This document shows positions 1,883 to 18,336 of a DNA stretch of 64,000 bases, in pieces (position 1 is the first letter of the stretch; each line of letters opens with the position of its first letter). The stretch covers positions 192,001 through 256,000 of the forward strand of contig CBDCJO010000001.1 of NCBI GenBank assembly GCA_965217865.1, written 5' to 3'. The stretch is from Candidatus Latescibacterota bacterium (GTDB lineage: Bacteria > Latescibacterota > UBA2968 > SICM01). The notes beneath the pieces were generated by a model, which was not told the DNA's origin, did no database searches, and saw nothing but the letters and a program-made list of their open reading frames with translations. The position numbers and the translations under genes were made by a program.

Positions 1883-2572
1883 TTACTGTTCTTGGCCGGG
1901 GGTTGTCGACCCCCGTCTTGCCCAAACGATAAACATGGGATCCATCGATCGGTCGGGCGTCGTGTTGCGCTTGACCACTTTCGGGGGATGGAACATTTCA
2001 GAGAGCTCAAAATATCTTTTCACGATTGCGATATGGCTGTCGTTGTCAGATTCCCGCCACATCCGAACCGCTTTTTCCCAGAAGCAACGGTCCGAAAACG
2101 CAACACAGAAAGGGCTCTCGGGTTTCAACAACCGGGCGACCTCACGAAAGACATCCAGGGGATGGGTCAGATACTGCACCGAGACGCTCATCACGGCGGC
2201 ATCGAATGAGCGCGGGGGGAACTTTGTCCGGGGATCCCGGTTGATATCCCGCACGACGAAATCGCTAAGGATCGGATTGTCCCCCATTTCCTCGGCATTT
2301 AATCCCACCCCTACGACCTCCCCCTTAAACGAGCCGGGCAGGTGAGACCTCCAGTTGCTCATCAGGTCCAGGGTTTTCCCGTCCTCCGGCAAAACCTCCG
2401 AATAGAAGGATCGAAGCGCCTCCACGGCGCCTTCGTCAATATGGACAAGCTTGCGTGCCTCCGAGTAAAAAACCGGGTCATCGGATTCATTGAGCCGCTC
2501 ATAAGCCCCCAGCTGAAACGGATCGTTTTTCAAATACCGTCTCCTGGACAGATCACGTTCAACGCCCTGCAA
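1883..2572 (-). CDS. Class I SAM-dependent methyltransferase (type 11-like)
   Basis: ESDDPVFY..RKLVHIDEGA, LDLMSNWRSHLP, VGVGLNAEEM, SFDAAVMSVSVQYL, FSDRCF motifs. Confidence 0.85.
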   Translation of the reverse strand: MQGVERDLSRRRYLKNDPFQLGAYERLNESDDPVFYSEARKLVHIDEGAVEALRSFYSEVLPEDGKTLDLMSNWRSHLPGSFKGEVVGVGLNAEEMGDNPILSDFVVRDINRDPRTKFPPRSFDAAVMSVSVQYLTHPLDVFREVARLLKPESPFCVAFSDRCFWEKAVRMWRESDNDSHIAIVKRYFELSEMFHPPKVVKRNTTPDRSMDPMFIVWARRGSTTPGQEQ

Positions 2573-3426
2573 ACCACCGTAATAGTCGCAGGGGTTTTAC
2601 AGAGGGGTTCCCCATCGCCGAAGATCCACATCGGTGTGGAAGATTCGATCCTCAATCGTTCCGTCCGAAGGATTTCCACGGATGCGGAATTCACGTGGGA
2701 TCCGAAGAACACCAGCGGAAACAGAAGCAGCACGCGCCATCGGGGCATGTGATGCACGATGCAGATGTCCAGGACGCCGTCATCGCAGACAGCGGAAGGC
2801 ACAATCCGCATCCCCCCGCCATACGTCGAAGTATTCCCGGCTGCAGACAGAAACACTCGCCCCGTCACAGTCCCGAAGTCCCCGGTCAACCGCATTTCGG
2901 GGCTCCGATAGGTCAAAAGCGTCTTGAGCGTCCCCAAAATATATGCCGCGGTCCCGCCCAAGGGCTTCCCGTTCTCGTGGATTGAAAGGGCGACTTCCGC
3001 GTCGAATCCGACCATCGCAACCGTGCAGAAATACCGATCCCCCACCCGGCCCAAATCGATCCGGCGCACCTGCCCTTCAACAAGGAGATCCGCCGCGTGA
3101 GCGGCCCCTTTCGGAAGGTTCAGGACGCGGGCGAGATCGTTTCCGGTCCCGCAGGGCACGATCCCCACGACGGTGTTCAACCCCGCCGCAGCCGACACCA
3201 CTTCGTGCACCGTTCCATCTCCCCCGCAGGCCACAAGCCGTTGGACGCCATCCTTTACGGCCTCCGCAGCGATGACGCGTCCGTGTCCCCTTTCTTCCGT
3301 GAACGTCAACCGGACGGAAATCCCCTTCTCCGCTAACCTTCTACGGACCTCCTCACCCACCGACCTTCCCCGTCCCCTTCCTGAGACCGGATTGGCGACT
3401 ATGAGATATTCTGGGATCGACATCAA
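2530..3426 (-). CDS. Diacylglycerol/lipid kinase, YegS/BmrU family
   Basis: NPVSG, GGDGT, GTGNDLAR, YGGG and DGE motifs. Confidence 0.92.
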   Translation of the reverse strand: MMSIPEYLIVANPVSGRGRGRSVGEEVRRRLAEKGISVRLTFTEERGHGRVIAAEAVKDGVQRLVACGGDGTVHEVVSAAAGLNTVVGIVPCGTGNDLARVLNLPKGAAHAADLLVEGQVRRIDLGRVGDRYFCTVAMVGFDAEVALSIHENGKPLGGTAAYILGTLKTLLTYRSPEMRLTGDFGTVTGRVFLSAAGNTSTYGGGMRIVPSAVCDDGVLDICIVHHMPRWRVLLLFPLVFFGSHVNSASVEILRTERLRIESSTPMWIFGDGEPLCKTPATITVVCRALNVICPGDGI

Positions 3427-3601
3427 AACACAGGTCCGGATACCGGAAATGGAAAACCGCGAGCGTCGGGTGTTCGGAGTCGAAAGTGGGAGTCCGAGGT
3501 CCAGGAGTCGAAGTTCAAAACCGGTATGACCTCATTGGATTTTCTTCTGGACACGGACTCCTGAATGCTGACTTCCGGCGTGGGCGGGAGCGAGGAACTT
3601 T

Positions 3602-5149
3602 TTACCCGACTTTCACGTACAGAAAGGGCGGAATGCTCAACCCGACGACGTCATCCCCGGAATTGATTTCCCTGGCAAGACCCAGCGCATGGTTTATGCT
3701 GGGTGCCCAATCAACTCCGAGTTTTTTGGCGGTCTTATCGTCCCTGGGACCGACGAGGATGACCTTTGAGAGATATTTCAGAGGATAGGTTGCCCAGTAC
3801 CAGACGGTAAACGGGTGGAAGCCGTGGTGTGCGTATTTGTTCCGGTAACAGTCTATGAGATAGGGGTCAAGTGCGAATTTCTCCTGGAACTTTTGCTGCA
3901 TTTCGAAAGGTTCCGTGGTCTCGGCTAAGACCTCTTCATAAAATTTCTTATACGCAACGTGATATTCTTCGTGAAAGATCTCAAAGGTGGGGTTGACGAT
4001 GATAATCACCCCCCCTTTTTTTACGATCGGTCTATTATAAAACCAGTTGAAAACATAACCCAGTACATCGCTGACCACCAGAACGGGGTTGATGCGCGCC
4101 CCCACCGAGTAAGGGCTCAGGTCCGGAAGCCCGAAAACAAGGGTGCCGAATTGTCTGGGCACGGGAACGGTCAACTGAGCGTTCACGGCGTTCAGGGTCT
4201 TTGCGTGGACATCATCGATGGCCCCGGCGTTGATCTCGATCGGATCGTAGGACGTGCGGATGCCTTTGAAAATTTGGAATCGGAGGGGTTCTGGAAGCAC
4301 CGCCATGCTCGCAGGGGTGAAGAACTTCAGAACGCGCTCAATGGGGTTACATCGGTCGTTCGGTTTGCTGATGTATCTCAGGTAGAACGGGTAAGTCGCG
4401 CTGTTCATCGGGGCTTCCAATACCATAATCCTACAATGTTTCTGAAGGAACCTGCTCATCCTTTCGATGGAAGCGTGCATGCACGAATTTTCCGGCTGCA
4501 TCACGTGAGGGTTCTCCGATGTCATCTGGGGAGAATGGTGAGGCGCAATCGAACGGTAGGTTCCCAAACCCACCGCGACCGATTTATGGCCCCCGTTCAG
4601 AGGTATCTGAACCGTATCGACATAGATGACCAGATCGCTTTCGACCACCGACCGGTCTACCTCCACGGCTTCCCCCGCTTCGGTCTCTCCGAGGAAAGTG
4701 ATATGATCGGGATCTTCCGCATCGAAATTTCGCAATTGTTCCGGATAAAACGCCTGCATGAGTCTTTTACCCAACATGGCGGCCAACTCGTGTCTTTTCA
4801 TTTTTCGGTGAAGCGCGACCGCACAGATCAGTCGGATATTTTCCTTCTGAACCCCGTAGGAGAACAATTTTGAGATCAGGGTTTCGATGACGATCTGCCG
4901 GATATCCGGTTTTTTTGTCGCGGGGAAGGGCTGGCAATTATCGTCGAAAGCGATGGTGATTCTGGATTGGCCGTTGACGATTTTACTTAAGGGGGGCATC
5001 CCGCAGGGATTTTCAATAGCCTCCTGGACCGACTTCGGAATATCCGGTCTTTTTATTCCAGGAACGTGTGGAGGGGAATAATAGATTTCAGAATTGTCAG
5101 GCAGGTTTGCATTAATCAGATTGTTGCCCGAGTATGTCAGATATTTCAT
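3602..5149 (-). CDS. LarA/DUF2088 (lactate racemase-like, nickel-pincer family) protein
   Basis: EAIENPCGMPPL, IAFDD, AVALHRKM, GGHKS...HH with LarA-like Lys-x15-His spacing. Confidence 0.8.
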   Translation of the reverse strand: MKYLTYSGNNLINANLPDNSEIYYSPPHVPGIKRPDIPKSVQEAIENPCGMPPLSKIVNGQSRITIAFDDNCQPFPATKKPDIRQIVIETLISKLFSYGVQKENIRLICAVALHRKMKRHELAAMLGKRLMQAFYPEQLRNFDAEDPDHITFLGETEAGEAVEVDRSVVESDLVIYVDTVQIPLNGGHKSVAVGLGTYRSIAPHHSPQMTSENPHVMQPENSCMHASIERMSRFLQKHCRIMVLEAPMNSATYPFYLRYISKPNDRCNPIERVLKFFTPASMAVLPEPLRFQIFKGIRTSYDPIEINAGAIDDVHAKTLNAVNAQLTVPVPRQFGTLVFGLPDLSPYSVGARINPVLVVSDVLGYVFNWFYNRPIVKKGGVIIIVNPTFEIFHEEYHVAYKKFYEEVLAETTEPFEMQQKFQEKFALDPYLIDCYRNKYAHHGFHPFTVWYWATYPLKYLSKVILVGPRDDKTAKKLGVDWAPSINHALGLAREINSGDDVVGLSIPPFLYVKVG

Positions 5150-5203
5150 AAGGCCCCGCCCCGGTTATGAACCCGGAAGATCCGTGTCAGACTCGTCCTC
5201 CCC

Positions 5204-6397
5204 CTACCCTTCGCGTAAATCAAAAGCCGTTTTTATCGAGCCGTTGCGTCCGGTATGCATGGCCACCTCTAAGGCCTCCCGGTAATCCCGAAGGGGAAAC
5301 TTGTGGGTCACGAGCGATGTAAGCCCGTCCTTGAGCCCCTCCATGAGTCGAAGCGCCAGCTGGAAGGTGCGAATCGTCTCGCCGTCCCAGCATTCTGTAC
5401 CGTACGTGTAAGATCCGACGACCTGCAGCTCCTTATACCAGATCGAGGTCCAATCCACACCGGAGGGAATCGCAGGCATGCCCACCAGTATGGTCTTCCC
5501 CCTTGCTCGCGTAAAGCGAAGGGCGTCATCGATCGTCCGGGCGTTCCCGACGCAGTCAAAAACGACATCCGCCCCTCCCACCAGGACCGACTTCCCGAGC
5601 TCCGGCCGAAGTTGTTCCGCCCCCGTAGCTTCACATACGGACTCGTAGAGGTTCCTCCCATCCTGGATGATTTCGTTCGCTCCCAGTCCGAGGGCGGATT
5701 CTTGCTGGTGGGAGTATCGGGCAACCGCGATGATCCTGCTTTCGCTCCCGAGCGCCCTCAGGGCTGCAACGGTCAACAACCCGATGCTTCCACACCCGAT
5801 AATCAGAACAGTGGCTCCTTTTTCAGTCATACCGCGAAGGGCCCCGTGGACTGCACACGCAAAGGGTTCGATCAACACGGCCTCTTCGTCGGTCATGTCA
5901 TCCGGTACAGGATGAACCTGAAAAGGATGTGCAACAAGTGACCGACTCCAGCCGCCTCCCGTATCTCTGCAGAATCCTGTCTGAATGCCGGATGAGATGA
6001 TGCCTTTCGTTGTCTTTTCACAGTTTCCATAATCCCCGGCGGTACACCGGCGGCAGTGGTCAACCCCCCTGACCACGCAGGGTAACGCGGGTTCGAGAAC
6101 CACACGCCGCCCTTCTTCCGTCTCTCCCACCATCTCGTGACCGAGTACGAACGGGGTGGAGACAAAAGGCGAAAAATAGGGACTGCCGTTCGCCGAGACC
6201 GTCGCAAGGTCCGATCCGCAGATCCCGCTCAGTCTCGGTTTGATCCGGATCCACTCAGGGGACGGAAGCTTCGGTTCCTCGATCTCGGATAGTCGGATGC
6301 AGGAATAAACTCCGGTGCTCAACCCGGTCCAATACCCCCCCAACAATCTTACCTTCAGATAGCGCGGGATGCTCTTGATGTACTGGATGGCCTCCAT
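5204..6397 (-). CDS. Zinc-binding (MDR) alcohol dehydrogenase
   Basis: GICGSD, GHE, structural-Zn Cys cluster, GCGSIG Rossmann motif. Confidence 0.92.
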   Translation of the reverse strand: MEAIQYIKSIPRYLKVRLLGGYWTGLSTGVYSCIRLSEIEEPKLPSPEWIRIKPRLSGICGSDLATVSANGSPYFSPFVSTPFVLGHEMVGETEEGRRVVLEPALPCVVRGVDHCRRCTAGDYGNCEKTTKGIISSGIQTGFCRDTGGGWSRSLVAHPFQVHPVPDDMTDEEAVLIEPFACAVHGALRGMTEKGATVLIIGCGSIGLLTVAALRALGSESRIIAVARYSHQQESALGLGANEIIQDGRNLYESVCEATGAEQLRPELGKSVLVGGADVVFDCVGNARTIDDALRFTRARGKTILVGMPAIPSGVDWTSIWYKELQVVGSYTYGTECWDGETIRTFQLALRLMEGLKDGLTSLVTHKFPLRDYREALEVAMHTGRNGSIKTAFDLREG

Positions 6398-6453
6398 CTC
6401 TCAAGATAGCCTCAATATATAACGGGACAGGGTATTCGATTTCGACCTTGAAT

Positions 6454-7161
6454 TTAAACCTTCCGGCTCACGCTCCATTCAGCCACCTCCCACCCGCCTT
6501 CTTCTGCTGCCCTCCGAAGCCTCCCTTTCGGATTTACCGCCACCGGATGTCCAACACAGCGGAGCATCGGCATGTCCGCGCCGCTGTCGCCGTATGCGAA
6601 GCTTTCCGCAAGGTCGATCTGTTGGGCTTCAGCGAACTCCCGCACAAGCCGGGCTTTTTCCTCGTCTCCGACCGGAGGACCGGTCAACCTTCCGGACAAA
6701 ATTCCGTTCTCCTCAGACATCCGTACGGAGATCACATCGCCCACATCGAGCAGCCGGGCAAGAGGGGCCACGATGAAGTCCAGGGAACCCGTGATGAGCA
6801 CCACCCGCTCCCCGTTATCCTGATGTCGCTTGACTCGTGCAACCGCTTCGGAGTACAATCTCGGCCTGATTTCACGCTCAAATAGCCCACCGGTCTGTTC
6901 GCGAAGTCGTGAGCCCGGCATCCCCCGATAGCTTCGATAAAAGACCCGGTTGAATGCGCTTCTGCTGATTTTGTCGATAAGGATGAAGGAGATGATTTGA
7001 GGAATGAACCCCGTCCAGAAGAAAATTTTTTGAAGTCTGGATCGGTCATGGGTCGCGAAATAGGCGTAGTAATGAACGATCGTAGCCCGGACAATGGTCC
7101 CGTCGACGTCGAAAAAAGCAGCCCTGGACCCGATCGAATCCATCTGTCCCGCAGACCCCAT
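6454..7161 (-). CDS. HAD-IB family (phosphoserine phosphatase-like) hydrolase
   Basis: FFDVDGT, ITGS, conserved Lys, AYGDSGADMPML, AVNP. Confidence 0.92.
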   Translation of the reverse strand: MGSAGQMDSIGSRAAFFDVDGTIVRATIVHYYAYFATHDRSRLQKIFFWTGFIPQIISFILIDKISRSAFNRVFYRSYRGMPGSRLREQTGGLFEREIRPRLYSEAVARVKRHQDNGERVVLITGSLDFIVAPLARLLDVGDVISVRMSEENGILSGRLTGPPVGDEEKARLVREFAEAQQIDLAESFAYGDSGADMPMLRCVGHPVAVNPKGRLRRAAEEGGWEVAEWSVSRKV

Positions 7162-7173
7162 AGGTGAAAATAC

Positions 7174-9168
7174 TCACGGCCCCGATGGTTCGGGGTTCAA
7201 AAGGCTTGTGATATGAACAGCCTGGAAAAGGGACGCTGACTCCACCTGAGTACGGAGCGATCTCCGCCGTGGCAGCAGGGTCGTCTCTCCGGGCATCGGA
7301 GGAGATATCACAACCTCGACCAATCCGGGATTGATGTGGAGGTTTCCCTTCGGGCACTTGGGCCAAAGGGAATGGATGCCACGGAAGGCGAGTGGAATGA
7401 TGACAACGTCATGGGGAAGCAGTGCGAACAGGGCGTGTTGGAGGGGGGGAGATTGGAGGCCAAAGGCAGCGATGGTCCCCGCAGGATAAGTCAGCCCGGG
7501 TCTTTCCCCCAGGGCCTGAACCAGGCGCTGAGTCGTAGGGATGGCATCCCGGGATCGCTCGAGCGTTACATATCCGTCCACATCTGCGAGCAATCCGTCG
7601 AATCTCTCCGCGGACATCCCGAACATGGTCATCGACCAGGAGCCGATCTTCACACCGGCATTGGCCAGCCCTGTGCGAGCCAGGATCACGAATGGAACCG
7701 GTCGTTTCCACCCCATCGCCCCCAAAAATTCTGGACTCCCCAGAACGTGGTACATAACGGGATGGTCCAGGTAACTCTGATGCGTGGGCAGCATGAGAAT
7801 CTTCTTCTTTCCGCTTCCAAGCTCAAGCCCTTGCGCGATCGGAAGGAACTTGGGATCGATCTGGATCTTTACCTGAATGCCGAAGGTGCGAAGCGTGGCT
7901 TCCGCCCAGTCCAGGCAATACTGCCAGGCGAGTTCACTCCTTTCGGCTGAATCCAGATCGGCCTTGGTTAAATTTATTTTTCGCCGCCCCAACCTGAAGG
8001 AGGCAATCACCCAGCGTCCCAATCTCAACCCTCGGGACCAATTGGACAATACGGAACTTCGGCCGACGTGAGGATACTCGAGGAAATGACCGCTGACTTG
8101 ATCCGAAAGCAGAGGGGGTACGGACACCGGATGAAGCCCTTCAACACCCGCGCGGACTGAATCTTTAACCCGAAGAATATCCCGATTGACACGTGCGACC
8201 AGGCGTATAGCTGTGTCGGTCATATCCCGTGTCAGATAACTGTAGTGATGCCCGTACCAGTATCCGGCCGGTTTCAATTGAGCTGGATTTTCCCGGTGCG
8301 CCCCCAAAAATTCGACCATCATGCTCTGGGCACGATTGATCTCCCCCTTGAGTGACTCGGCGGCCGACCGACCCAACCCCAGATCGCCGAATTCGTAAAG
8401 CTGGTAGCGAAGCAGATCCGCTTCTGTTATGACCTTCCACACGGAACTCCCGAACCAGGCGAAATTGGTATAGGCGTTGTAGCGTGTGGTCAGAAATTCA
8501 CCGGCGGCGATATAATCCAGGGTGCTCTTGACGACCTTTCGAAGCGAGTCCAGCAGAGGAGCCTCGGTCGTATGTCCCCCAAACGTGCATGCGTAGTTGC
8601 CCCCCCATCTCGGGTCGTCGCAGACCGCAACAGCGGGCAACGCCTCGGCGACGCCCTGAGCGTGGGACATCGGAACCCGCGAAATTTTTGCCCGCTCAAG
8701 CGCAGCCTCTCCCGCGTCGGGAACCAGGAGATCCTCCTTCGCCAACACATCCACGTAGAGGCTCTGGTAAAGTTGAAGCAAGTCCTCCTCGGTTCCGATC
8801 CCCCTATCGACGAATTGCTTCTGAACCTGAATATAGATAAGGTTTGCCTCGTGATAAGCCGGACAGGCGCTTTGGAACTGTGCGTGGGATTCGGACAGCC
8901 GTTTCTCCCTCAAGGCGGGTACACGATCGAAGATGGTCCGGATGAGCTTGGCCCTTTTCAAGAGACCCGGAAGGCCGATCGAACCCTGCTCATTCCGGCT
9001 CGGGGGCCAGATGAGTTCGTCGGGATCCCAACCTTCAAGGTGCCCGTCGGAACGCGCGATTTCGACCATCTCCTGCGCGGCCTGGTCGTAGATGTTCAAC
9101 ATTCCATCCGGGTCCTTCAGCAACTCTTCATAAAGAGGGTTGGGACCTATCTCAAACTTTTTCTCCAT
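7174..9168 (-). CDS. Large protein with C-terminal PlsC-type acyltransferase domain and unknown ~400-aa N-terminal domain
   Basis: PTHQSYLD (HX4D), YPAGT (block III), VIIPLAFRG in the C-terminal third. Confidence 0.75.
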   Translation of the reverse strand: MEKKFEIGPNPLYEELLKDPDGMLNIYDQAAQEMVEIARSDGHLEGWDPDELIWPPSRNEQGSIGLPGLLKRAKLIRTIFDRVPALREKRLSESHAQFQSACPAYHEANLIYIQVQKQFVDRGIGTEEDLLQLYQSLYVDVLAKEDLLVPDAGEAALERAKISRVPMSHAQGVAEALPAVAVCDDPRWGGNYACTFGGHTTEAPLLDSLRKVVKSTLDYIAAGEFLTTRYNAYTNFAWFGSSVWKVITEADLLRYQLYEFGDLGLGRSAAESLKGEINRAQSMMVEFLGAHRENPAQLKPAGYWYGHHYSYLTRDMTDTAIRLVARVNRDILRVKDSVRAGVEGLHPVSVPPLLSDQVSGHFLEYPHVGRSSVLSNWSRGLRLGRWVIASFRLGRRKINLTKADLDSAERSELAWQYCLDWAEATLRTFGIQVKIQIDPKFLPIAQGLELGSGKKKILMLPTHQSYLDHPVMYHVLGSPEFLGAMGWKRPVPFVILARTGLANAGVKIGSWSMTMFGMSAERFDGLLADVDGYVTLERSRDAIPTTQRLVQALGERPGLTYPAGTIAAFGLQSPPLQHALFALLPHDVVIIPLAFRGIHSLWPKCPKGNLHINPGLVEVVISPPMPGETTLLPRRRSLRTQVESASLFQAVHITSLLNPEPSGP

Positions 9169-9180
9169 ACATCCTTTTCC

Positions 9181-10821
9181 TTAAATCTTCTTCTTTTCGA
9201 TTTCTCCATCCGGATCCACCCCGTCCTCCGATTCTTTCAGGACGTGCCTTTTCAATCCGGGGATATGAATCTCCTGGATATACGCCTTCCAGTCGATACG
9301 TCCCACATCGAAGTTGAAGATCCTCTGCTCTTCTAAATTTAAATCCCGGTACAGGCGACGGGTGTTCTTCGTGGCAAACCGACAATCCAGATTGGTGTAG
9401 GGACTATAGATCTCGGCAAGGGACATCACTTTTTGAAGCGTGGCCTCCAGGGTGGTGACCCTTCGTCGCAGCGCCCGCGACCAGGGAATCGCCGAGACAT
9501 TATCGATCAACCATTGAAGTGTATTCAGCGGAATCTGGTATTTCAAACGACAGCGCCGCCGGAACTTCCTCGGTGAGGGAAAGGACCATCGATGTACCGG
9601 AATCGGGTCCCCTCCGCGGGTCCGCATAGGGTTCTTAAGGAAATATTCATGGACCAGTTTAAACATCTCTCCGAGTTTCAGCGGATTTTCAGTTCCCGTC
9701 GCAACTTGGTAAACCGCGACCTCTTTTCCGAAATTCGGTTTGGCCAGGGCAGCAAGCATCGCATTGACCACCATATCCACTGGCACGACATCGAGCACGA
9801 TATCGGGATTTGCAGGGAAGTCGGATATCCTCCCTTTGCTGTAATGAACGATCAACGTGTCTGCCACTTTTAATCCGTCAAGCCATCCGGGCTCAGGATC
9901 CACCAGGCTGCTCTCGATGATCGATGGACGAACGATGATGGTGGGCATATCCCCCCGTGTCTGGAGAATGGCCAGCTCCCCCATCGCCTTCGTGAGGGTA
10001 TAGCTGTCGTGCCACCCCATCCCCCTCGCCCTGCGCATCCCTTCATCGATCAACCTTCGGTTCAGCCACCGTTTTCGGGTGGCTTCGATAAGGGTCTGCA
10101 TCCGGTGCTCGGATATGGCGCGACCGTTCTGCTTTCGGATCGACCTTTGGAATTTCGCCCTCATCTCGGGAAGCCGCGATTCCTCCTGAACGCTTCGGCT
10201 GAATGTGATAATGTCCTCGATCTCCCGGTCCAGATCGAAGACATTTCCGTCTCTTCCCAGATGTGCGACGGTCTGCGAAGAAAGGATCGGTTCCTCGGGA
10301 ACCCGTCCGGTCTGCCTTCCGTTGACATATGCCGTGGAAACGTGCAGGAAAATCGGTTCGCGACACCCCGTTGCAAACTCGACCATTCGCATGGGTCCGA
10401 GGGTATTCAGCTCCAGCGCGAGATCGAGACGTTCATCAAAGACCACGGTGGCCGCGACATTAATCAGGACCTGCACCTCTTCAGCCAACCTGGCGCGCGT
10501 ATCCGGATCGAAACCCAGGCCGTCCTGGGACAGATCCCCTCCAACAGCCGACACCTTAGACCGTATAAAATCCCAGAACCCGTCGCCATACATCCTCCGC
10601 AACTTGGCGAAAGCCCTCGACTCGAACACCTCTCTCTCCAGACTTTCCTGGGCGGACAGAATCCCGCCATCCGGCCCGCGACGAGGTCTGATCATAAGAT
10701 ACAGCCGTCCCACATCCGGGATTTCCGACAGGATCTTCTCCACGAACCCCTTCCCCAGGAAACCCGTCGATCCGGTGACGAAGAGCTTTTTACCACTAAA
10801 AAAATCGGCGATAGTCGACAT
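9181..10821 (-). CDS. Fatty acyl-CoA reductase (NAD_binding_4 plus C-terminal Sterile domain)
   Basis: VTGSTGFLG, HVSTAYV, YTLTKAMGE (YxxxK), IVRPSII, DVVPVDMVVNA, FNFD...IDWKAY. Confidence 0.92.
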   Translation of the reverse strand: MSTIADFFSGKKLFVTGSTGFLGKGFVEKILSEIPDVGRLYLMIRPRRGPDGGILSAQESLEREVFESRAFAKLRRMYGDGFWDFIRSKVSAVGGDLSQDGLGFDPDTRARLAEEVQVLINVAATVVFDERLDLALELNTLGPMRMVEFATGCREPIFLHVSTAYVNGRQTGRVPEEPILSSQTVAHLGRDGNVFDLDREIEDIITFSRSVQEESRLPEMRAKFQRSIRKQNGRAISEHRMQTLIEATRKRWLNRRLIDEGMRRARGMGWHDSYTLTKAMGELAILQTRGDMPTIIVRPSIIESSLVDPEPGWLDGLKVADTLIVHYSKGRISDFPANPDIVLDVVPVDMVVNAMLAALAKPNFGKEVAVYQVATGTENPLKLGEMFKLVHEYFLKNPMRTRGGDPIPVHRWSFPSPRKFRRRCRLKYQIPLNTLQWLIDNVSAIPWSRALRRRVTTLEATLQKVMSLAEIYSPYTNLDCRFATKNTRRLYRDLNLEEQRIFNFDVGRIDWKAYIQEIHIPGLKRHVLKESEDGVDPDGEIEKKKI

Positions 10822-10949
10822 GATACGAATTAAATAAGGAATTCAGCCGTGGTGGGGGCGCGACGGAGATCAAACCTCCGTGATGGCGCCAAAGGGAACA
10901 ATCGGGTTAGGATGTCTCGAAGCCGAATGTCCCCGGGGGCAGAAGAAAA

Positions 10950-12716
10950 TCAGTCAGAATCAGACTGCTGATCCACGATCGACCCGGATGGCCGACCCTT
11001 CCGAAGTTCGGGGATTGCGTGCCGCCGAACCTTTTGAGTGGAGGTCTTGGGAAGCTCTTCCTCCAGAACAGATATTCTGCGGATCCGTTTGTAATCCGCC
11101 ATCTGACTGTTCAAACGGCGAACCTCTTCACGCACGGCGGTCTCGATCTCTTCGGGGGAATAAGGGGTCCCACGCTCGTCCTCCATTTGATCGAAGCATT
11201 CCTTTTCCGAAACGACAAGGACCTCGATATCCTCCCCACCCCCGTCCCCGGTCGGAACACCGTAGACCAAGGTTTCCTTGATGAGAGGGCTTGGGTTCAG
11301 GAGTGTCTCGATCTCCTCGGGATAGACATTCTTCCCCCCAGGCGTCACGATCACGTTCTTCGAACGCCCGCAGATATGCAAATATCCATCCCGGTCAATT
11401 CTTCCCAGATCTCCCGTATAAAACCACCCATCCTTCAAGGCCCTCGCCGTCATCTCCGGATCCTTGTAATACCCTTTCATGACGATGTCTCCTGCCGCCA
11501 GGATCTCCCCCACGCCATCGGGTCCAGGGTCTCGGATCCGGACTTGGGACCCGGGCACCGGGACGCCGACCGAATCGTGGCGCGGTCTCTCGGCGGGATT
11601 CACCGTCAACACGGGAGAAGTCTCCGTCAAGCCGTAACCCTGTGCAAACGAAAATCCCAGATCCTCGAAACCCTGCGGAATCGTAATGGGCAGCGGGGCC
11701 CCACCGCAGATGAACAGCCGGACACTCCCTAAACCCGCCTTCTGCCGGAGACTTCGGAAGACCTTGCCACCCACCTTCAAGCCCAGGCCTATCCGGAGGC
11801 CCTTCACGATTCCCATCATCGCACGAAACATGGCCTTGACGGCCGCCGGTTTCTGGTTCACCCCCCGCAAAATCCCGGCGTGAAGTTTCTCGAAGAGAAG
11901 GGGCACGCCAAGCATGACAGTCACGTTCGTATTTCGCATGTCATCTAGGAGGTCCCTGGATTTCAAGCTCCGGGCGTACGTCACGGTCGCACCCACATCC
12001 ACGGGACAGATCAGGCCTCCCGTGCATTCGAACGTGTGGTGCAGGGGGAGGACAGAGAGGAATATATCTCCACTCCCGAGACGAATAATCTCCTGGGCCC
12101 CCCTTGCATCCGTCAGTATGTTCCGGTGGGAAAGCATGACCCCCTTCGGTTTTCCCGTCGTCCCTGACGTGTAGATGATCGCGGCCAAATCATCGGGGGT
12201 AACCCCTGGGGATTCCGACATCGGGGCCCCGGCCTCCAGGACATCACCCCAACCGTCCATGCATATGACCCGATCGATCCCATCCATCTCCTGAGCGGTT
12301 TCTCTAAACCGCTCGGAAACAATCATCCATCGGGTCCCTGAGTCCCTCGCAATCGCCTGGATCTCGGGCGGTTTCATCAACGAATCGAGCGGAATGGCGA
12401 TTCCGCCGCAGGCCTGCGACGCAAAGTAGGCAATAGCCCATTCCGGACGATTTTCCCCCAATATGCCGACGGTTTCACCCGGCCGAACGCCGATCGCCCG
12501 CAACCCCCCGGCCAGCGCGGCCGTCTGTTTGCCCAATTCCCGGTATGTGAGCCGATCGTAAGCACCTTTCCGCCAGGTTTGAAGCGCCACCTTTTCGTCC
12601 AGCTGGGCTGCTCTTCGGGCAACCATCGCTGGAATCGTCGACTCGTCTGCCACGGCTGAACCCCTGAATTGAAAGGGTTTGTTTTTATCTGGATCCGGTT
12701 CGGGCGTTAGGACCAT
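10950..12716 (-). CDS. Long-chain fatty acid-CoA ligase (AMP-binding); alternative GTG start at 12653
   Basis: IIYTSGTTGKPKG, GYGLTET, TGDLG, KNVYPEEIE, PKTSTQK. Confidence 0.93.
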   Translation of the reverse strand: MVLTPEPDPDKNKPFQFRGSAVADESTIPAMVARRAAQLDEKVALQTWRKGAYDRLTYRELGKQTAALAGGLRAIGVRPGETVGILGENRPEWAIAYFASQACGGIAIPLDSLMKPPEIQAIARDSGTRWMIVSERFRETAQEMDGIDRVICMDGWGDVLEAGAPMSESPGVTPDDLAAIIYTSGTTGKPKGVMLSHRNILTDARGAQEIIRLGSGDIFLSVLPLHHTFECTGGLICPVDVGATVTYARSLKSRDLLDDMRNTNVTVMLGVPLLFEKLHAGILRGVNQKPAAVKAMFRAMMGIVKGLRIGLGLKVGGKVFRSLRQKAGLGSVRLFICGGAPLPITIPQGFEDLGFSFAQGYGLTETSPVLTVNPAERPRHDSVGVPVPGSQVRIRDPGPDGVGEILAAGDIVMKGYYKDPEMTARALKDGWFYTGDLGRIDRDGYLHICGRSKNVIVTPGGKNVYPEEIETLLNPSPLIKETLVYGVPTGDGGGEDIEVLVVSEKECFDQMEDERGTPYSPEEIETAVREEVRRLNSQMADYKRIRRISVLEEELPKTSTQKVRRHAIPELRKGRPSGSIVDQQSDSD

Positions 12717-12749
12717 TCCCGAGCCAGAACCTGTTAAAATTTCCGATCA

Positions 12750-12778
12750 AATTTACGCCCCACCCCTGGTTTTGTCAA
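12750..12778 (-). promoter_or_regulatory. Sigma70-type promoter of the lipid operon
   Basis: TTGACA-N17-TAAATT on the minus strand. Confidence 0.65.
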
Positions 12779-12799: not shown

Positions 12800-13129
12800 T
12801 CAACCCTGAAGGTGGTAAACTTCCTCCATCATCGCCCACCACTCCCCTGGACGGGCATCCGCTACCGGTTCCTGGAACCCATTCATCAACTTTTGCCACA
12901 CCGCGCACCTCGGATCTTCCATGTAGGAGGAGAAGTCGCTGTCCCAGTTGAAACTGTCTTCGGTCAGGGAATACATAAACAGTCTCCGGCCGATCAGGAA
13001 GATTGTCATTTCCTTGATGCCGATCCCCCGCAATCCGGCCTCGACTTCCGGCCAAACCCTCCGATGATGCTCCTTGTAGACCTCGACCGTTTCCGGTTTC
13101 AAATTCAACGTCAGCCCGAATCTTTTCAT
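12800..13129 (-). CDS. rhaM: L-rhamnose mutarotase family protein
   Basis: YKEHHRRVWPEV...GIKEMTIFL...W...M...WWAMMEEVYHL. Confidence 0.85.
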   Translation of the reverse strand: MKRFGLTLNLKPETVEVYKEHHRRVWPEVEAGLRGIGIKEMTIFLIGRRLFMYSLTEDSFNWDSDFSSYMEDPRCAVWQKLMNGFQEPVADARPGEWWAMMEEVYHLQG

Positions 13130-14614: not shown

Positions 14615-17062
14615 ATGTCCATCCCCGCGCTTCTGAACGAATGGCGAAACGACCCCGAAGTCGCCCCCAACATCGCCGCCTGGCGAACCTTCCCCGAGCG
14701 TCAAAGAACGGCCGTGCCATTCCCGGCCGGGCTCCATCCCCTTCTGAAAGGGGCGTTGCTCCGGCGCGGGATCGACGTCCTCTACACACACCAGGGCCAG
14801 GCGTTGGAACACATACTTGCCGGCCGGCACACCGTCATCGCCACGGGCACGGCCAGTGGAAAAACCCTCTGTTATAACCTTCCTGTCTTGAATCGACTCC
14901 TCGTTGATCCGTCGGCACGCGCGCTCTACATCTTCCCCACGAAAGCCCTGGCCCAGGACCAGAAGGATGAATTGAGGGGGTTTATCGGTGGTTTTGAAGA
15001 AGGTTCCGAAGAGGGAAACCCGCAGCAGCGGATTCCTGTCTCGACATACGACGGAGATACGCCAAAAGGGGTCCGGTCCCGGCCGGGGGAACGCCCGGTT
15101 GGTCATCAGCAACCCGGATATGCTTCACTCCGGAATCCTGCCCCATCATACATTGTGGTCCGAATTTTTCCGCCACTTGCATTTCGTGGTGATCGACGAG
15201 ATACACGTCCATCGAGGCGTGTTCGGCTCGCACGTTGCGAATGTCCTTCGCCGCTTGAAGAGAATCGCGGATTTCTACGGATCAGCACCCCGGTTTATCC
15301 TAACTTCCGCGACGATCGCCAATCCCGAAGAGCACGCCGAACGGCTTGTCGAAGACCACGTCTCACTCGTGGAGGTGGACGGCGCGCCACGGGGGGAGAG
15401 GCATCTCCTGATCTACAACCCGCCGATCGTAAACCGCGAACTCGGCCTTCGCCGAAGCGCCCTGTTGGAGAGCGTTCGCATGGCACGGGACCTGTACAAG
15501 CACGATGTGCAGACCATCGTTTTTGGTCGAACCCGTCGGACCGTTGAATTGATCCTCGGATATCTGCGACGCACCTCGACTCCATCTGCCCACGGGGACG
15601 ACGAAGATGATCGAATACGGGGGTATCGCAGCGGTTACCTGGTGAAGCATCGGAACGAGATCGAGCGGGGACTCCGGGAAGGGCTTGTGCGTACGGTGGT
15701 CGCAACAAATGCCCTCGAACTTGGAATCGATATCGGAGGCATGGGGGCTTCGGTGATGACCGGCTATCCGGGTTCCGTTGCAGGGACCTGGCAACAGGCT
15801 GGCCGCGCAGGCCGCAAGCGCGAATCCTCTCTTGCCGCCTTGATCTCTTCGGCCAACCCACTCGATCAATTCCTGGCGCACCATCCTGACTATTTTTTCA
15901 AAAAATCTCCTGAACAAGCCCTGATCAATCCCGATAATCTCCTGATTCTCTTACAGCATCTGCGGTGTTCGGCGTTCGAGCTCGTTATCCTTCGGGGATG
16001 GTCACCCTGCGAAGCGCCTCTTCCAACCGTGTGGATCTGGAGGCGGCTGAGGAGAATTCCTGGAAAACAATCGGTCACGTGGACATCACCAGCGCTCCCT
16101 GGATGGTCCATCCCCAGGCCATATATCTCCACGAGGGCCAGGCCTACTCCGTTGAGGATCTGGACCTCACCCGAAATGTCGCGCGATTGCGTCCGTGCCA
16201 GGTGGATTATTACACTGAGCCGCGAACCGAATCCACGGTAAGCCTCTTGGAAAAATCCCGCGAGACCCCGGCCTTCGGTGCCACGAAGCTTCACGGTGAA
16301 ATCGCTGTCACGACCCGGGTGACGGGATTTCAAAAGATCAAATGGTTTACCCACGAAATCCTTGGCGGGGGAGAACTCTCGTTGCCTCCAACCCGTCTAC
16401 AGACAACCGGGTATTGGCTCTCCCTGACCGGCCAAACCGTCGAGGGGCTTCGTATGGAGGGGTTGTGGACCAACGACCCTAACGATTACGGGCCCAACTG
16501 GGCGTTGCAACGGGAAAAAGCGATGGAACGCGACCGATTTCTATGCCAAATCTGCGGCGGAACGGAGGTTGAGGTGTCTCATCACGTTCATCACAAGATT
16601 CCGTTTCGCACCTTCGGATCATACGAGCAGGCCAACCGGTTGACCAACCTGGTGACACTTTGCTCAGTCTGCCACCGTCGCGCGGAACAGGCCGTGAAAA
16701 TCCGAAGCGGCCTGGCCGGCCTGGCATACATCCTGGGCCATCTCGCGCCCCTGTTCCTGATGTGCGATGCAAGGGATATCGGCGTTCATTTCGACCCCCA
16801 ATCCCCGCTCTGGGAGGCCCGTCCCACCGTCGTAATCTATGACCTGGTACCGGCCGGGATCGGTTTTAGCGAGCGCCTTTTTGAAAGGCACCAGGAACTG
16901 ATCGCGCGGGCCCACGATCTTGTAGGTTCCTGCGAATGTGGAGAGGGTTGCCCTTCCTGCGTAGGGCCTGCGGGTGAAAACGGAGAGAACGGGAAGCGCG
17001 AGACCCAGGGAATTCTCTGGGCCATTCTACCGCCCAGAGACCACTCTTGTAATTTGCCATGA
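14615..17062 (+). pseudogene. mrfA: MrfA/Hrq1-type DEAD/DEAH helicase with DUF1998 and inserted HNH domain; split over three frames
   Basis: TASGKT and PTKALAQDQ (frame 1); DEIH, SAT, ALELGIDIG, QQAGRAGR (frame 2); C-terminal CECGEGCPSC (frame 3). Breaks near 15082 and 15984. May be sequence errors rather than true pseudogenisation. Confidence 0.8.
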
Positions 17063-18336
17063 CGACGCTTACGGATAAACTCAAGTCTCTGTCGGTTCAG
17101 GGCGTTTCGCTCGACAATCCCCGGGCCTCTTCGGCGCATCCTATCGATCAGGTTCTTCCATGCCGTAACCATGCCACCGACCGGGGGGAGGCCTTCCTCG
17201 TTGAGACAATCCACCCGCGGGATTATCGCCACGGTCGCTGCCCGATATATCCCCGGGCTTCGCTGAGGTCCTTTTTAGAGGGGTTGAAACAACCGGACCT
17301 CCCGTCGCTCGAACCCCGCCATTTCGCATATCTGGACACCGAGACCACCGGGCTTGTGGGCGGAACGGGCACATATGCCTTTCTGATCGGGGTTGGACGC
17401 TTCGATGGCCACCAGTTCCGCCTGGCGCAATTTTTTATGCGGGACCCGATCGAGGAGCCTGCGGTTTTGGCAGCGCTATCTAATTTTTTGCAGCCTTGCA
17501 GGGCCCTCGTAACCTTCAACGGAAAGGCCTTCGACCTCCCTCTCTTGAACACACGCCACATCGTAAACGGCACACATCCTTCTCTGGCCGTCTTCCCGAA
17601 CATAGACCTCCTCCCAATCGCTCGGCGAATCTGGCGCCACACCCTTTCCAACAGGTCCCTCGGAAATCTCGAGGAAAAAATCATTGGGGCAGAGCGAACA
17701 CACCTGGACGTTCCGGGTTGGATGATCCCCGGGATTTATTTCGATTACCTTAGGTCCGGCGATGGCCGACCCCTTAAAAGCGTGTTTTATCACAATGCGA
17801 TGGACATCCTCTCCCTCGCAGCCCTGTTCAATCACCTCGCGAGAATGCTCGAAGACCCCATCAATCGGGTTGTATTCGGCCCCGAACTCTACGGAATCGG
17901 AACCATTTACGAAGATCTGGGACATTTCGAGGCCGCTGCCGGGATCTACGAACAGGGGTTGAACCATCCCTTGCCGGAAGATGTTCGTGACAAGATCCTT
18001 CGGAAGTTGTCATACCTGGAACGACGTCGCGGGAATCTATCCGGAGCCGTCGATTTGTGGCTCAGATCCGCCCGTCACGGGAAGGTGTATGCCCACGTTG
18101 AATTGGCCAAATATCACGAACACAAAAGACGCGATTATCGGAGGGCAAAGCAGTGGACCCTCACGGCGATCGATCTGGTCAATCAGGGAGGACTCCCGCC
18201 ATACAACCGTGGCAGGTGGCTTCGGGATCTGGACAGAAGACTTGGACGCCTTCGGAGAAAAGCGGATAAAAGTGCGTTTGAAAACCTGAAGGACGCAGGG
18301 CCTTTCTCCCGGGACACATCGCTAAGGGTCTCTTGA
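17059..18336 (+). CDS. mrfB: MrfB/YprB-like RNase H-like (DEDD) exonuclease with C-terminal TPR-like region
   Basis: LDTETTG, TFNGKAFDLP, DLL..ARRIW, HNAMDILSL, ELAKYHEH; 4-bp overlap with the helicase stop. Confidence 0.85.
   Translation: MTTLTDKLKSLSVQGVSLDNPRASSAHPIDQVLPCRNHATDRGEAFLVETIHPRDYRHGRCPIYPRASLRSFLEGLKQPDLPSLEPRHFAYLDTETTGLVGGTGTYAFLIGVGRFDGHQFRLAQFFMRDPIEEPAVLAALSNFLQPCRALVTFNGKAFDLPLLNTRHIVNGTHPSLAVFPNIDLLPIARRIWRHTLSNRSLGNLEEKIIGAERTHLDVPGWMIPGIYFDYLRSGDGRPLKSVFYHNAMDILSLAALFNHLARMLEDPINRVVFGPELYGIGTIYEDLGHFEAAAGIYEQGLNHPLPEDVRDKILRKLSYLERRRGNLSGAVDLWLRSARHGKVYAHVELAKYHEHKRRDYRRAKQWTLTAIDLVNQGGLPPYNRGRWLRDLDRRLGRLRRKADKSAFENLKDAGPFSRDTSLRVS

Follow-up and report, generated by a model that had tools for sequence, protein, structure and literature searches.

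Myxococcus xanthus holds an AGPS-independent route to ether lipids, elb, together with a second, AGPS-containing operon (PMC9131029, in part). Its elbABCDE locus (BGC0000871; elbA-elbE being MXAN_1531-1527 according to PMC13012113, in part) has no AGPS gene and encodes a fatty acyl-CoA reductase (FAR), a ligase and an acyltransferase, fused with an acyl carrier protein (ACP) in ElbD, beside a phosphatase of the haloacid dehalogenase (HAD) type, ElbB, an NAD(P) oxidoreductase and ElbC. MXAN_1529 is listed in group 15 of the LarA homologues (LarAHs) in the cited part of the PMC7583248 supplement, and since elbC is MXAN_1529 by its locus tag, ElbC is a LarA homologue; the function of elbC and the route by which a fatty acid becomes an alkyl ether are given as unknown in M. 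xanthus (PMC9131029, in part). Here, we describe a seven-gene cluster, likely an operon, in a window of 64,000 nucleotides (the 64-kb stretch at positions 192,001 to 256,000 of contig CBDCJO010000001.1) from a Candidatus Latescibacterota bacterium. The original prediction for this DNA, a split, Elb-like locus, had placed a DUF2088 gene at the M. xanthus elb locus; that gene is real and is elbC. In our best reading, the locus is better described as a core of FAR and acyltransferase, found throughout the class, with an exchangeable downstream module of HAD phosphatase, Zn-dehydrogenase and LarAH, than as a split ElbD. The operon very probably makes 1-O-alkylglycerol ether lipids, the chemistry first proposed for it and supported here, and the module probably replaces AGPS in function.

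The layout as such has been described before. A sponge preprint (10.64898/2026.06.23.733905, in part) reports split elbD genes (reductase/adenylation), adjoining diacylglycerol kinases and elbD and agps matches in Latescibacterota, so a split elb-like cluster is not new; these Poribacteria and Acidobacteriota clusters share elbD- and elbB-type genes, splits and diacylglycerol kinases with the window, and elbC, racemase or DUF2088 are not mentioned in the cited portion of the text. The gene context of LarAH group 14 was likewise tabulated in 2020: acyltransferase, HAD, Zn-dehydrogenase and FAR-like reductase (Table S1 of PMC7583248, in part). In Frankia, Nocardioides, Kribbella and Rubrobacter these neighbours are COG0204, COG0560, COG1063 and COG3320, as in the window, whose LarAH differs in belonging to a divergent clade that scores below the NF052592 cut-off and shares about 70% identity with Poribacteria homologues. 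The table gives neighbours only, and 'lipid' and 'acyl' do not occur in the main text of PMC7583248 as far as it is cited here. No link of LarAH or ElbC to the ether step was found in the searched literature, which mostly excludes subscription journals.

All seven genes are co-oriented on the minus strand, from 12716 to 2530, and are those originally named. G000 denotes the source genome of the window, and G001 and G002 are genomes of the same family used for comparison.

12750..12778, minus strand: sigma-70-like promoter match, TTGACA-17-TAAATT (motif match; hexamers and spacing kept in G001 and G002)
10950..12716, minus strand: long-chain acyl-CoA ligase, 588 aa as listed (PF00501, 292 bits; motifs)
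9181..10821, minus strand: FAR, 546 aa (PF07993 and PF03015; GSTGFLG and YTLTK motifs)
7174..9168, minus strand: acyltransferase, 664 aa, with helical N-domain and PlsC/GPAT-fold C-domain (model; HQSYLD at 463-468)
6454..7161, minus strand: HAD-IB phosphatase of ElbB type, 235 aa (TIGR01490, over cut-off)
5204..6397, minus strand: Zn-dependent medium-chain dehydrogenase, 397 aa (PF00107 and PF08240)
3602..5149, minus strand: LarA homologue of the ElbC / LarAH14-16 family, 515 aa (PF09861, 123 bits; NF052592, full length)
2530..3426, minus strand: YegS/DAGK-family lipid kinase, 298 aa, accessory (TIGR00147, over cut-off)

The gaps from ligase to kinase are, in order, 128, 12, 12, 56, 54 and 175 bp, and the 12-56 bp claimed from FAR to the LarAH gene proved exact. 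A single contig from another public run extends over the entire stretch, differing by 119 substitutions, a 3-bp in-frame insertion and a 2-bp intergenic deletion that leave the frames unchanged; the separation of the genes is therefore no assembly artefact.

The exchangeability of the module is seen within the phylum, where counts cover 153 genomes, 125 of them in the class. The acyltransferase is present in 127 of the 153 and in all 125 class genomes, and FAR in 125 and 122, respectively. Among 20 loci fetched around the acyltransferase, the next gene was often a FAD oxidase of 590-620 aa, followed by a short-chain dehydrogenase/reductase (SDR). The oxidase of G002 is AGPS, scoring 543 bits to mammalian AGPS (4bby) over residues 20-589, with the best non-AGPS entry at 105. 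AGPS was found in 118 phylum genomes, at a search threshold of 1e-60, and LarAH14-16 in eight, never both together; the Zn-dehydrogenase is restricted to the same eight, and the HAD phosphatase occurs in these and in G002 (9/153). The 127 acyltransferase genomes thus comprise 118 with AGPS, seven with HAD, Zn-dehydrogenase and LarAH, none with both, and two with neither, which are cut by contig ends: G080 ends in an AGPS fragment and the acyltransferase of G024 runs off its contig. The source genome gave no AGPS match at 1e-60, just partial FAD-oxidase matches of 21-27%.

In 50 of the 53 genomes outside family f2 that have both genes, no more than 5 kb separates AGPS from the acyltransferase, and an SDR follows AGPS within about 1 kb in 13 of 17 AGPS loci read in this phylum. 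These SDRs belong to several clades, an orthologue search at 1e-55 matching only G002 and G144. Compared with the FAR, GNPAT and AGPS of animals, of M. xanthus MXAN_1676-1674 (with MXAN_1676 as the AGPS) and of most class genomes, the window has orthologous FAR and acyltransferase genes in the operon position of its AGPS-bearing relatives; AGPS and SDR are missing, and HAD, Zn-dehydrogenase and LarAH stand in that place. An animal-like FAR-acyltransferase-AGPS route to ether lipids is a probable core trait of this uncultured class, and the counts suggest that nearly the whole class would encode it. At L104:4230-10483 and L105:7417-13976, for example, FAR, the 664-aa acyltransferase and AGPS stand together; the AGPS of the class is at 47% in the mammalian-type query range.

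The exchange amounts to a natural swap experiment, in which FAR and acyltransferase stay constant and one genus carries AGPS or the three-gene module. G001 (LarAH) and G002 (AGPS) are of one genus and share the order rhaM-ligase-FAR-acyltransferase, and G002 has retained the HAD, behind AGPS and SDR. In genus g30, HAD, dehydrogenase and LarAH are carried by G142, G143, G145 and G146, three of these with the kinase in view, and AGPS by G144. A quick acyltransferase tree of 25 of the 127 sequences needs at least three changes between the AGPS and LarAH states, on well-supported branches. The AGPS proteins of G002 and G144 share 70% identity and cluster together at 0.999, apart from the usual AGPS of the class, which suggests that AGPS was re-acquired and hence that swaps went in both directions. 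The g30 LarAHs, only 32-33% identical to that of the window, appear on this ground to have been acquired separately; in the LarAH tree they are sister to the window clade at 0.87, on long branches. The kinase follows LarAH in G036, G054, G142, G143 and G146, is absent at the G001 locus and is present in some AGPS loci. FAR was not found in draft G145. At L126:682-10624, the same genome encodes another LarAH14-16 protein, which scores above the family cut-off; its gene follows that of a 1,708-aa ligase-ACP-luciferase-like-methyltransferase-reductase protein and precedes one for phosphatidylserine decarboxylase, so that the setting is that of some other lipid or natural product.

Kinship with the elb locus, claimed at the outset, is borne out by FAR and ligase, which are 37-45% and 31-36% identical to five ElbD-type fusions (a sixth was left out, and none is M. 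xanthus ElbD). The fusion of FAR, acyl-CoA synthetase (ACS), ACP and acyltransferase in G054, of the same phylum, accounts for 45% and 35% over the matching domains. The three ElbD activities are three separate genes here, a split seen also in relatives and in the other run. The notion of a split ElbD fails at the acyltransferase, which has no real similarity to the ElbD acyltransferase domain (E 0.028) and belongs to a class-wide family with AGPS as its usual neighbour. The label 'PlsC-type' stands for the C-domain, which has a PlsC/GPAT fold with an HxxxxD motif (HQSYLD) and in the model (pLDDT 87) matches 5kym with a Z score of 15.6 and a root-mean-square deviation of 3.1 over 222 residues; it does not extend to the protein as a whole, since the Pfam PlsC search gave 19.2 bits, under the cut-off of 23, and about 370 helical N-terminal residues are unmatched. 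Residues ~10-370 form a confidently modelled all-helical domain with invariant residues, for which there was no usable Atlas match, no PDB sequence match and just generic helical-bundle structure matches. By their source names, homologues come from Latescibacteria, Handelsmanbacteria and Gemmatimonadetes, and no longer or fused versions were found, which is weak evidence. From its position, the acyltransferase is likely a dihydroxyacetone phosphate (DHAP) acyltransferase in the role of GNPAT, DHAP being the substrate required where it sits between FAR and AGPS, and FAR likely supplies the fatty alcohol.

M. xanthus elb differs from the window in its fusion, its ACP, its acyltransferase family and the NAD-dependent epimerase/dehydratase ElbA/ElbE, which the medium-chain Zn-dehydrogenase replaces here; the lipid kinase is an addition in the window. 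The ElbC homology of the window LarAH rests on the common family NF052592. Although the locus is outside the strict elb definition (fusion, ACP, acyltransferase, ElbE), it likely works like elb. As originally noted, no ACP is visible within the cluster, on a profile search of its proteins. The genome encodes two unlinked ligase-acyltransferase proteins of 896 and 859 aa (G000:C2:2971344-2974034 and C2:4026704-4029283), 28-32% identical to ElbD and without a FAR part, the larger having an ACP-like match; either could be the source of an sn-2 acyl step. The solved structures nearest to the Zn-dehydrogenase are ketose, threonine and polyol dehydrogenases, and with ketose and polyol enzymes among them the carbonyl reduction of dihydroxyacetone fits; the enzyme is likely a backbone carbonyl reductase in place of SDR or ElbE.

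The module also accompanies genuine ElbD fusions. In G054, a FAR-ACS-ACP-acyltransferase protein of 1,449 aa is followed by HAD, dehydrogenase, LarAH and kinase, and the FAR of family f2 mostly lies within frames of ~1,400-1,500 aa, the length of ElbD. The window HAD is 42-50% identical to HADs directly downstream of ElbD fusions. The 80 best of 269 GTDB loci matching the window LarAH clade come almost entirely from Poribacteria; the dehydrogenase is in the fetched flanks of 43 of them, and FAR or HAD in those of none. In whole-genome searches, each of four Poribacteria and one Phycisphaerae had LarAH, the dehydrogenase and a FAR frame as long as ElbD, and none of the five had full-length AGPS or the 664-aa acyltransferase family; HAD directly follows ElbD in 4/4 loci fetched from this set. 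The elbC and elbE roles absent from the Poribacteria clusters appear to map to an unlinked pair of LarAH and dehydrogenase. On one Poribacteria chromosome, the first 34 LarAH codons stand in three tandem copies, 230 bp apart, before the intact gene (L028:10001-10562). The viral contigs scanned with the LarA homologue gave no match.

The phylum of the Phycisphaerae genome, which we take to be Planctomycetota, was surveyed in 251 genomes. LarAH occurs in 12, and all 12 have FAR, compared with 21 of 251 overall. AGPS-like genes were found in 11 of the 251; five FAR genomes have the AGPS-like gene only, and four AGPS-like genomes are without FAR. HAD is missing in three of four genomes with ElbD and AGPS only and distant (36%) in the fourth. 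Planctomycete loci with acyltransferase, AGPS-like gene and SDR (L146-L148, L155) come from genomes without a match to the FAR query.

The LarAH of the window matches NF052592, which covers groups 14, 15 and 16, over its full length (510.7 bits, E 3.6e-153), below the cut-off of 740, with the next family at 101 bits. Its model is closest to single-histidine LarA homologues (TM 0.78 to 9q3k). Residues D70, H114, K189 and H205 align with D73, H115, K195 and H211 of LarA_Sp, which are the ribose Asp, catalytic His, thioamide Lys and nickel His (10.1101/2025.08.19.671153, in part), and are invariant in 17/17 aligned proteins, down to 32% identity. At the site of the second catalytic histidine (LarA H174) there is no His, and Gln73 occupies the position of LarA R75, the same pattern as reported for LarAH groups 14 and 15; LarAHs without the second His may catalyse another hydride-mediated reaction (PMC7583248, in part). 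LarA_Sp and LarA_Bw (9Q2U/9Q3K, 9Q3J) share the closest fold, these four residues and the lack of a second His, and differ in identity (19-24%), in their carbohydrate-gene context and in an Asn at the second-His site. The LarA_Sp ligand of 316.5 Da has the mass of hexadecylglycerol, by arithmetic only; this agreement was rejected as evidence in view of the host, of the gene context and of how many compounds have that mass. A nickel-pincer cofactor is predicted for the window LarAH from these residues. The source genome has larB, larE and larC, the last as two unlinked parts, N-terminal at G000:C2:4853382 and C-terminal at C1:130877; larB was present in 4/4 and larE in 5/5 further LarAH genomes tested.

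The exchange of acyl for alkyl by AGPS is redox-neutral, as is LarA chemistry. Since the other two exchangeable genes encode a plain phosphatase and a plain reductase, LarAH is picked by elimination, and we lean towards it being the enzyme that forms the ether bond independently of AGPS with its usual cofactor. Judging from family and position, the ligase would make acyl-CoA, FAR would reduce it to fatty alcohol, and the 664-aa acyltransferase would acylate DHAP to acyl-DHAP. HAD may then dephosphorylate acyl-DHAP before LarAH exchanges acyl for alkyl, the Zn-dehydrogenase would reduce the carbonyl of the backbone, as the SDR would next to AGPS, and the kinase would rephosphorylate the product. 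A finer scheme is tentative and rather doubtful: the primary hydroxyl freed by HAD gives a hydride to the cofactor, elimination of the acyl group is followed by addition of the fatty alcohol, and the hydride returns. It would explain why HAD accompanies LarAH rather than AGPS and why one histidine suffices.

A wider proposal, evenly balanced in our view, is that ElbC-type LarAHs are nickel-pincer ether synthases acting on a dephosphorylated backbone, a flavin-free alternative to AGPS swapped repeatedly in both directions and the missing elb step in myxobacteria, Poribacteria and others. If true, this would be the first non-isomerase reaction of the nickel-pincer cofactor and would provide a marker gene for bacterial ether-lipid producers. 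Two gaps would be joined, that of elbC and the ether steps in M. xanthus (PMC9131029, in part) and that of the reaction of LarAH groups 14 and 15, and one protein with one cofactor is singled out as testable in a genetically tractable host.

The most resilient alternative, though unlikely, keeps the module as the replacement of AGPS and gives LarAH a helper role, isomerising or epimerising the glycerol or triose backbone, as every characterised LarA homologue is an isomerase (PMC7583248, in part) and the nearest structures, single-histidine LarAHs, adjoin triose-phosphate genes; the second histidine needed for racemisation is, however, lacking. The bond would then be made elsewhere. ElbD has been tied to an aldehyde and not an alcohol (PMC9131029, in part), which favours aldehyde chemistry by FAR, and the N-domain of the acyltransferase has no assigned fold, but the same FAR and acyltransferase work with AGPS in 118 genomes and are thus unlikely bond makers alone, and the five ElbD/LarAH genomes do without this acyltransferase. 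The dehydrogenase, as a third candidate, is absent from M. xanthus elb (PMC9131029, in part).

That ether synthesis was lost, the module serving to salvage or degrade alkylglycerols or acyl-DHAP or the operon making wax esters or free fatty alcohols, is less probable still. The genome does lack AGPS, and a phosphatase, a dehydrogenase and a kinase would suit salvage as well. Yet the module is present whenever AGPS is missing and FAR and acyltransferase are kept (apart from the FAR of draft G145), it follows true ElbD fusions, and ElbB and ElbC types are part of a route genetically shown to make ether lipids (PMC9131029, in part). The wax-type lipids once envisaged found no support; the wax synthase domain PF03007 (WS/DGAT) was found in 0/4 genomes in a search without a responding positive control. 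Among known bacterial ether routes, which include Ger (PMC13159169, in part), Ger does not explain the loss of AGPS in G000, G001 and G146, since no Ger/PlsA domain (PF09989) was found there while the T. maritima positive control matched. Least probable is an ether-forming LarAH with no nickel-pincer cofactor or a different one, for although Gln stands at the R75 position, larB does not track LarAH and in vivo loading of cofactor failed for one single-histidine relative, the equivalents of the thioamide Lys and nickel His are invariant, the closest structure was solved cofactor-bound, and larB and larE were found in every further LarAH genome tested for them.

Several observations weigh against LarAH as an ether synthase in place of AGPS. 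The distribution points to the three-gene module and not to LarAH singly, the split of 7 versus 118 reflects few independent events (at least three), and some LarAH genomes are drafts 84-93% complete. Two of the 12 LarAH-positive planctomycetes (G251, G332) also carry an AGPS-like gene, four of the 21 FAR-positive genomes of that phylum have neither, and five of 11 planctomycete LarAH loci are without dehydrogenase and kinase in the fetched stretch. G036 holds a Ger/PlsA-like domain besides LarAH. With larB in 93 of 96 class genomes, the cofactor genes do not track LarAH and larB is useless as its co-marker. Frankia LarAH14 was inactive in all seven tested activities (PMC7583248, in part), a result neutral on ether chemistry. 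M. xanthus holds both elb and AGPS routes, and elbD by itself gave partial rescue of a polar insertion in elbB, which lies upstream of elbC (PMC9131029, in part). Leaky polarity or the AGPS route as a back-up would account for this rescue, but so would an ElbC that is dispensable.

The promoter match originally noted upstream of the ligase is present at 12778-12750. The pattern has 10 sites within the window against 7.6 +/- 2.8 in shuffles and is not above chance by itself; identical hexamers and the 17-bp spacer stand upstream of the ligase in both G001 and G002. A GTG at ~12653 aligns with the ATG of two relatives and is probably the true start of the ligase, rather than the listed one. Among loci read, the ligase adjoins FAR only in family f1. 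In G000, G001 and G002, the ligase is preceded by an L-rhamnose mutarotase gene (rhaM, 12800-13129, minus strand), which in the window has its own promoter match (11/12 positions) at 13198-13170, and a small methyltransferase gene (1883-2572, minus strand) comes after the cluster in the same three genomes. Further upstream, at 14615-17062 on the plus strand, an MrfA-type DEAD helicase with an inserted HNH domain is split over three overlapping frames, possibly by assembly errors, and is followed by an RNase H-like gene (17059-18336).

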